Shown: positions 63,805-64,000 of the stretch, one piece after another | Position numbering within the stretch: the first letter of the stretch is position 1 | Layout of the letters: the number at the start of each line of letters is the position of its first letter | Source: a virus | IMG/VR virus record: IMGVR_UViG_3300045988_176357 | Span: 96,001-160,000 of that record | Strand: one strand, 5' to 3' | Length of the DNA stretch: 64,000 nt | Notes under the pieces: model-generated | What the model was told of the DNA's origin: nothing | The model's database searches: none | The model's input: only the letters and a program-made list of their open reading frames with translations | Translations under genes and position numbers: made by a program

Positions 63805-64000
63805 GAACAAGAAAGTGAATTGCTGGGACACCTTAACGGGTAACGCCGAAGGCAATCAGCAGCCGAGCCATGCGTTCGACAGAACGCCAGCGCATGGAAG
63901 GTTCATCGACTATCCCGTACGTAATGGGAGTACCCGAGTAGCCATGTGCGTGATAACGCACGAAAGCAAGGGGAAGCACTCTGGCTCAGGAATGAGTCAA
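63805..64000 (+). mobile_element. IStron copy 3 (5' part only within the window): variant group-I-intron-like module inserted in the DNA polymerase gene.
   Basis: Shares gaacaagaaagtgaattgct and cagccgagccatgcgttcgacagaacgccagcgcatggaaggttcatcgacta...gtgcgtgataacgcacgaaagcaaggggaag with copies 1 and 2, but has a different approx. 32-nt insert where they carry approx. 115 nt. Confidence 0.55.

Follow-up and report, generated by a model that had tools for sequence, protein, structure and literature searches.

The window analysed here is a 64,000-nt stretch of viral DNA (positions 96,001 to 160,000 of IMG/VR record IMGVR_UViG_3300045988_176357), and the polymerase exon, the intron with its parts and the two IStrons described below all lie on its plus strand. 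Near its end the window contains the first exon of a family A DNA polymerase gene (62318–63772, 485 codons, ending ...GIVESG; phrog_17 DNA polymerase, E 7e-8), which encodes the 3'-5' exonuclease region together with an N-terminal portion of the polymerase domain. [quoted passage not shown] This reading is built on the boundaries, structure, covariation, restoration of the ORF and absence of cargo that were observed; catalysis and the mode of spread are proposed in addition. The polymerase frame stays open from 62318 to the end of the window, as a first-pass annotation made from the sequence had reported, and an extended contig places a stop (TGA, 64001–64003) at the very next codon. That annotation had also expected naive gene calling to yield a chimeric protein, and the public gene calls at this locus are indeed wrong: they give a 561-aa chimera (555 aa in the related cluster P0003, which has 267 member sequences) and miss the rest of the polymerase. 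The predicted true product is an 822-aa family A polymerase encoded by five exons.

Two further contigs, one of 192 kb (L001) and an independent one of 33 kb (L002), were obtained by an exact-protein look-up of the gene at 61832–62308. L001 equals the window over all 12,169 shared bases with no difference and is identical over 16,619 nt to L002, which comes from a different sample. Window positions are obtained by adding 51,831 to L001 positions. Pol-I1 occupies 63773–64119 in these extended coordinates (L001 11942–12288), the remaining 119 nt lying beyond the window at L001 12170–12288. A sister phage is represented by IMGVR_UViG_3300045988_177579 (L124). A megablast search of the last 6 kb of the window against 50,697 phage records gave no match.

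The start of the intron is set by its P1 helix (63766–63786), in which the end of the 5' exon and the first intron base, GAGCGGU|C, are paired with an internal guide; the two strands are GAGCGGUC at 63766–63773 and GGCCGCUU at 63779–63786. This pairing brings a U·G wobble (U63772·G63780) to the 5' splice site and therefore places the intron start at 63773, after ...AGCGGT and with CGGTTTGG as its first bases. The gene had previously been described as invaded at about 63805, but that position marks just the onset of plain sequence similarity; exon and intron meet at 63772|63773, which moves the intron start 32 nt upstream. A leader of about 45 nt had likewise been described as absent, but 63773–63814 (42 nt) carries the same two elements as the 42–43-nt leader of the IStrons, namely a guide that pairs with the local 5' exon and a 6-bp P2 hairpin with a GNRA loop. 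At the other end, homologs align without a gap across ...GIVESG|RTSASKPNLQQYPS, which puts the terminal G at L001 12288 and gives the intron its length of 347 nt. The terminal guanosine is present (...AAGCCUG), the 3' end reads ...ATCAAGCCTG with the tail ...GTGTGTACAATATCAAGCCTG, and the intron end ...GTGTACAATATCAAGCCTG is followed directly by CGTACATCGGCATCTAAGCCGAATCTCCAACAA, reading RTSASKPNLQQ. An alternative 3' splice site that would keep VESGR in exon 1 was rejected, the motif then being two residues shorter than in all homologs. For P10, no convincing pairing with the 3' exon could be identified.

The 23-mer AGAGCGGTCGGTTTGGCCGCTTC (63764–63786) spans the 5' splice site, its read-through frame encoding SGRFGRF, and is identical to part of a bacterial zinc-ribbon gene resembling topoisomerase I (...SGRFGRFLACPGFPEC...); the contigs listed for it are L126, L127, L130, L133, L134 and L135. 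Because of the size of the database we take this match as chance identity, and matches of the P1 20-mer within the zinc-ribbon gene were rejected as introns. In phage contigs the P1 20-mer of pol-I1 was found at no site other than this one in the polymerase gene. More than 119 viral contigs match a generic Q..R pattern (AGCAGCCGA..GGTTCANNGACTA); it picks up IA2-type phage introns in general, is not specific and was set aside.

Downstream of P1, the P2 hairpin (63787–63802, CACACC-GCGA-GGTGTG) is followed at 63810–63857 by the 5' strand of P3, J3/4, the 5' strand of P4 (UGCUG) and a short P5/P5a arm, CCUU..CGG-GUAACG-CCG-AAGG, which takes up 33 nt against 112 nt in the IStrons. The 3' strand of P4, the P6 hairpin and the 5' strand of P7 come next (63858–63912), these 55 nt being the same as in IStron 2, and the P7.1 hairpin (63913–63929) has the sequence UCCC-GUACGUAAU-GGGA where the IStrons have GGAC-AUCGU-GUCC instead. 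The remainder of the window (63930–64000) holds the P7.2 hairpin (63930–63975), the 3' strand of P3 (GCACUCU, 63976–63982) and P8 (GGCUCA-GGAA-UGAGUC, 63983–63998). The window ends just before the 3' strand of P7 (S element GAUAUAGUC), and past its end the ribozyme continues in the order P7' (S element GATATAGTC), P9, P9.1 and P9.2.

When this tail was compared with the whole window, 63858–63982 matched IStron copy 2 (42895–43015) at 89.6% identity (E 8e-44) and 63858–64000 matched copy 1 (34331–34468) at 81.8% (E 1e-34), while 63805–63824 is an exact 20-mer match to 42763–42782 in copy 2 (E 1e-4). A repeat finder returned the same blocks, with family D15 comprising 55 identical bases at 63858–63912 and 42895–42949. 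Part of the first-pass description is borne out by these data: pol-I1 and copies 1 and 2 share one family of group I ribozymes, it matches them in two blocks that include the R-like element GGTTCATCGACTA (63900–63912), it differs from them in a peripheral domain, which is the P5 arm, and it interrupts the polymerase gene in the conserved motif T-x-T-G|R-x-S-S-x-x-P-N-L-Q. The replaced segment after GTGAATTGCT is also real, although its sizes are 33 nt (63825–63857) and 112 nt rather than the 32 and 115 nt given earlier. The three copies had been taken to suggest recent mobility; this is so for the true IStrons, which occupy four different sites across two sister phages, and not for pol-I1.

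A scan of the whole window against Rfam at the gathering threshold gave no match; the group I model reports these introns only below its cut-off. At a relaxed threshold RF00028 is found at three places in the whole window only, which are pol-I1 and the two IStrons. Pol-I1 scores 40.9 bits with the full-length model matched (E 3.2e-8, L001 11932–12202), below the gathering score of 50, and its window part alone scores 22.3 bits.

The predicted structure is supported by covariation. MAFFT alignments of all five introns misplaced the 5' part of I1, so P1 and P2 were compared by anchoring on GTGAATTGCT. The P2 hairpin of copy 1 is TGAGGA-GTGA-TCCTCA and that of copy 2 is TAACCA-GTGA-TGGTTA, both as far from the anchor as the one in pol-I1, and relative to these all six pairs of the pol-I1 hairpin are changed, in a compensatory way throughout. 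In an RNAalifold analysis of six ribozymes (I1 from two phages and four IStrons), 27 of the 88 predicted pairs show compensatory changes, which fall in P6, P7.1, P7.2, P8, P9, P9.1 and P9.2. Between four versions of I1 at the same site the figure is 14 of 102 pairs, with P1 and its U·G invariant. In P6, three pairs are compensatory between versions. P3 and P7 do not vary in any copy, so covariation is silent on these two helices. The insertion of P7.1/P7.2 between P7 and P3', which is the hallmark of IA2 introns, is both predicted and covarying in pol-I1, the subgroup label itself resting on the assignment of IStron ribozymes to IA2 in the literature. A single-sequence centroid fold recovers P1, P2, P4–P5, P6, P7.1, P7.2, P8 and P9–P9.2, with a z score of -3.16.

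The four versions at this site are 347, 346, 341 and 309 nt long (the other three in L124, L125 and L131), and none carries tnpB. Pol-I1 has no ORF for a homing endonuclease of the GIY-YIG, HNH or LAGLIDADG type, a tblastn search with TnpB against L001 gave nothing significant, and BLAST of the pol-I1 3' tail against the IStron 3' ends (...GTCCGTAAGTTCATGACAG) gave no match.

Removal of pol-I1 restores VESG|RTSASKPNLQ (VESG|RTSASKPNLQQYP), the predicted spliced junction being GAGAGCGGU|CGUACAUCGG, also given as GTGGAGAGCGGT|CGTACATCGGCATC. Exon 1 aligns without gaps up to the junction with the uninterrupted homologs P0001, P0002, P0004 and P0013–15, of which P0002 has the domains PF01612 and PF00476. 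When all four introns are removed a 2469-nt ORF of 822 aa results from the five exons; it matches PF00476 with 70.6 bits (cut-off 34.3), while the read-through ORF has no Pfam match. All four junctions are gapless against the six uninterrupted homologs, for example GIVESG|RTSCSKPNLQQYPS in P0002, and against PDB entry 8jrb_A, and the family A motifs A (DYSFAEL), B (RQRAKAVNFG) and C (VHDE) appear in order. A search of the PDB with exon 1 alone returned spurious glutathione S-transferase matches only. The first-pass annotation had proposed looking downstream for polymerase motifs, and they do resume: the intron ends 119 nt past the window and motif A is reached within another 119 nt.

The other three introns are I2 (L001 12408–13448, 1041 nt, RF00028 37 bits), which contains a GIY-YIG ORF and lies 119 nt downstream of pol-I1, I3 (L001 13687–14719, 1033 nt), with an ORF that has an HNH-like motif, and I4 (L001 15131–15415, 285 nt, RF00028 26.3 bits). 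Their insertion points fall in motif A (DYSF|AEL), motif B (AKAVNFG|LPGG) and motif C (NFVH|DE), and each of the four intervening sequences has U| and G| boundaries and restores a conserved motif exactly. The exons are 99% conserved between the sister phages, and the 72 kb examined showed no second polymerase. In many database homologs the sequence breaks off at one of these motifs or at a PN(V/L)|Q site close by, and several read into ...KESELL..., the translation of AAAGAAAGTGAATTGCT; introns of this family are therefore common in this polymerase family.

A search of I3 against Rfam with a 276-nt query gave no match at E values up to 10. Its P1 places a U·G pair at the splice site and its last base is G, an ORF-less version exists at L124 5227–5461, and a layout drawn by hand follows P3-P4-P5-P6-P7-P3'-P8-P7'-P9, with the endonuclease ORF located in the P1 loop in this phage. 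I3 thus probably belongs to a group I subgroup that escapes the model. The sister phage has a fifth polymerase intron (L124 4924–5226) just upstream of I3, leaving a 9-nt micro-exon, AATTTCGGT, and the relative L125 has an extra intron after PNL that leaves a 27-nt micro-exon after I1. Intron content thus varies between closely related phages.

Both IStrons consist of a 5' group I ribozyme followed by a TnpB with OrfB_IS605, TNB and HTH domains. Copy 1 (34167–35835, 1669 nt, RF00028 26.9 bits) lies in an SbcC/Rad50-like ATPase gene, which is joined in frame when the copy is removed; its tnpB runs from a TTG start near 34657 to 35791 and has one in-frame TAG at 34939–34941. Copy 2 (42730–44405, 1676 nt, RF00028 21.6 bits) lies in a leucine-rich-repeat protein gene and has an intact tnpB at 43225–44340 (NF040570 guided_TnpB, 259.8 bits). 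Its removal restores the 23-residue repeat register of the host protein (...KIGG|DIYCADNEL), and a junction longer by two codons (..GA-TD..) was discarded because this register would then be broken. At the IStron junctions the exon G is paired with a guide C (GAGG|C..CCUC and GGAG|C..CUCC), the intron starts with CTTAACAA and it ends in CAG. The sister phage carries both IStron types at two other sites with the same 4–5-nt targets.

The tnpB of IStron 1 looks broken in the standard code; with TAG read through it encodes a colinear 377-aa TnpB with three Pfam domains. The two TnpB proteins are 66% identical overall, with about 40% identity in the N-terminal 180 aa and about 90% in the C-terminal half (halves judged by eye). 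The CCUC guide is found after exon ...CGAGG at two sites and the CUCC guide after ...GGAG at two sites (window 34157–34200 and 42720–42765; L057 5152–5200 and 10861–10905), and the TnpB N-terminal halves differ too. From these sequences it looks as if the guide of the ribozyme co-varies with the insertion target, and possibly with the target-adjacent motif of TnpB as well.

Group I introns of the IA2 subgroup are found in phage genes for DNA polymerase and DNA metabolism (pol of Bacillus phage SPO1, Staphylococcus phages Twort and K-like, T4 td and nrdB), and their presence in conserved motifs of phage replication genes is classical. Tourasse 2014 (PMC4227781) mentions phage introns of this kind in general terms. 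Pol-I1 resembles these introns in its P7.1/P7.2-type architecture, in the U·G at the 5' splice site and in its terminal G. It differs in having no endonuclease ORF, in sharing its gene with three other introns (the sister phage having five) and in having a core that is 86% identical to transposon-borne ribozymes of the same genome.

IStrons have been divided into CdISt1, which is group A and linked to IS605, and BcISt1, CboIStron and CsISt1, which are group B and linked to IS607 (PMC4227781; bioRxiv 10.1101/2023.11.20.567912). Copies 1 and 2 are IStrons in the style of group B, having tnpB only, insertion after GAGG or GGAG, an exon-terminal G·C pair and a CAG end like that of CsISt1; this group B pattern was set out by Tourasse et al. 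2014 (PMC4227781), and a 2026 review gives it again. IStrons are already known in phages, namely C. botulinum c-st and D-1873 (PMC4227781). Compared with IStrons, pol-I1 is without tnpB and without an omega-RNA region, and it has a canonical U·G junction and other termini. It is a plain group I intron of the ordinary phage kind and not an IStron.

Freestanding group I introns have been found beside IStrons before, three of them in C. difficile 630, and gain and loss of genes recurs between closely related introns in Clostridia (Zedaveinyte 2023, bioRxiv 10.1101/2023.11.20.567912). Like these freestanding introns and the ORF-less BcISt1, pol-I1 is a cargo-free ribozyme close to IStron ribozymes in the same genome; it differs from them in residing in a phage genome, in being a mosaic with an endonuclease-bearing intron and in having neither IStron terminus. 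The locus provides a clean case in which a group I intron free of cargo has a core 86% in common with IStron ribozymes of the same phage, and, in agreement with the gain and loss of cargo in Clostridia, it extends known biology to a TAG-recoded gut phage and does not change it.

The mosaic character of pol-I1 is seen along its length. Nucleotides 12–56 (P2 to P4) are 100% identical to I2, the GIY-YIG intron, P2 included, and nucleotides 86–327 (P6 to P9.2) share 86% identity with both IStron ribozymes, while P5, P7.1 and the 3' tail are peculiar to it. In P6, the arm of I1 is that of IStron 2 in this phage and that of IStron 1 in the sister phage, and members of cluster P0003 join an I1-type 5' part to an I4-type P6–P8. 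The shared blocks, the swapped P6 arm and the P0003 hybrid make it clear that ribozyme modules have been exchanged among co-resident introns.

A broader reading, which we put forward tentatively, would have ribozyme modules of this TAG-recoded phage lineage recombine within one pool, to which pol-I1, the polymerase introns with endonucleases and both IStrons belong, with I1 and the IStrons as a pair without and with cargo and with the guide and the TnpB N-terminus co-varying with the target. Within such a pool the cassette of tnpB and omega-RNA would sit, or once have sat, just 3' of an I1-like P9.2, and the guide (CCUC or CUCC) and the N-terminal half of TnpB would track the 4-nt target (GAGG or GGAG). 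If this is true, the origin and dissolution of IStrons and the coupling of guide and target would be directly testable in one genome.

Among the alternatives to a plain intron, the one that survives best is that pol-I1 descends from an IStron which once had tnpB at the polymerase site and lost its cargo by deletion. Homology does run about 15 nt past P9.2 (TGAACA-GA-CC-TGG), exactly to the start of the IStron cargo, ORF-less BcISt1 copies exist (Tourasse 2014, PMC4227781), and the last 17 nt or so are weakly alike by eye (GTACAATATCAAGCCTG and GTAAGTTCATGACAG). We nevertheless consider such a descent improbable: both termini are unlike those of IStrons, the 5' site is a canonical U·G where the IStrons pair G with C, P2 to P4 is that of the endonuclease-bearing intron rather than of the IStrons, and there is no remnant of tnpB.

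It is much less probable that the insertion is non-functional, the polymerase being a pseudogene or made as separate polypeptides with no splicing. The Rfam score under the gathering threshold and the read-through ORF of 76 codons would fit this, yet each of the four insertions lies between U| and G| and, once removed, leaves a conserved motif exactly restored, the helices keep their pairing through compensatory changes across diverged versions, and the exons of the sister phages are 99% conserved with no second polymerase in the 72 kb examined. Still less credible is an assembly artefact, in which a chimeric join through repeated intron modules would hide a different true locus. Intron modules do recur within the genome, and a public contig, L135 (OGQA01016149.1), is visibly chimeric, with polymerase exon 1 joined to the bacterial zinc-ribbon gene at the shared 23-mer; however, two contigs from different samples, L001 and L002, agree base for base over 16.6 kb, and the arrangement recurs independently in L124, L125 and L131, which all have substitutions of their own. 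In the first-pass view the element is a complete IStron, the third, whose tnpB, omega-RNA region and common ...GTTCATGACAG end would lie just past the window. From inside the window alone the core is 82–90% identical to the two IStrons and all three look alike, but this view can be dismissed with near certainty, as two identical assemblies, which match the window, show an ORF-less intron ending 119 nt past it at ...ATCAAGCCTG with neither tnpB nor ...GTTCATGACAG downstream, the TnpB tblastn search was negative, the 5' junction is U·G and not the G-C junction with CTTAACAA of the IStrons, and four of four versions at the polymerase site are without tnpB.

For pol-I1 as a plain group I intron, established group I chemistry suggests how splicing would proceed. 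In the pre-mRNA the guide GGCCGCUU would pair with the exon end GAGCGGU to form P1, and an exogenous guanosine bound in P7 would attack after U63772. The freed exon would then attack after the terminal G of ...AAGCCUG, joining GGU to CGU and giving ...IVESG-RTSASKPNLQQYP.... Ribosomes translating the open polymerase frame, which extends over 76 intron codons before it meets a stop, could disturb the folding; an early in-frame stop is present in many group I introns (Tourasse 2014, PMC4227781). As pol-I1 has neither a homing endonuclease nor TnpB, its spread is most likely passive, and might have come about through co-conversion with the GIY-YIG intron 119 nt downstream or through recombination with other intron copies.

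Several observations concern the genome as a whole. TAG is a sense codon in about the first 27 kb (window 1–27000; for example 962–3502, 4384–6891 and 10551–12158), where ORF coverage rises from 0.06–0.27 to 0.93–0.97 when TAG is read through, with 15–39 in-frame TAGs per gene; from 30 kb on, the genes have essentially none. Translated with TAG as Gln, 10551–12158 matches a baseplate wedge protein (phrog_6, E 3e-24). No tRNA genes were found in the window. The intron ORFs at L001 12739–13440 (I2) and 13680–14696 (I3) contain 15 and 20 in-frame TAGs inside a polymerase gene that is otherwise TAG-free, which suggests that the endonucleases are translated only once recoding is on. With TAG as Gln, the I2 ORF encodes a GIY-YIG endonuclease (PF01541, 24.6 bits), and the I3 ORF has an HNH-like motif by eye and no Pfam match.

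The crAss-like gut phages of the Zeta and Delta groups are also intron-dense and stop-codon-recoded (Yutin et al. 2021, PMC7886860). This phage resembles them in having the polymerase gene split into several fragments by group I introns, in recoding confined to part of the genome and in intron ORFs full of the recoded stop codon, and it differs in its myovirus-type baseplate wedge gene and its 47% GC. A Zeta crAss-like identity was considered for the 192-kb size, the intron density and the TAG recoding, and was not adopted in view of that gene and GC content. There are 0 occurrences of IStrons or TnpB in Yutin et al. 2021 (PMC7886860).

Tandem coding repeats are present in several genes (37570–38069, 52973–53572 and 57078–57319, with repeats at 38662, 39438, 45465 and 57684), the units being either 15 nt, encoding pentapeptide repeats of the GNxNxG type, or 63 nt. 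A paralogous family of small genes has conserved 5' and 3' blocks, and DUF7666 and Pentapeptide_2 are listed in the public gene calls. Two direct repeats of 98 nt, at 32068–32165 and 32750–32847, are 90% identical, lie 682 nt apart and are intergenic, upstream of genes.
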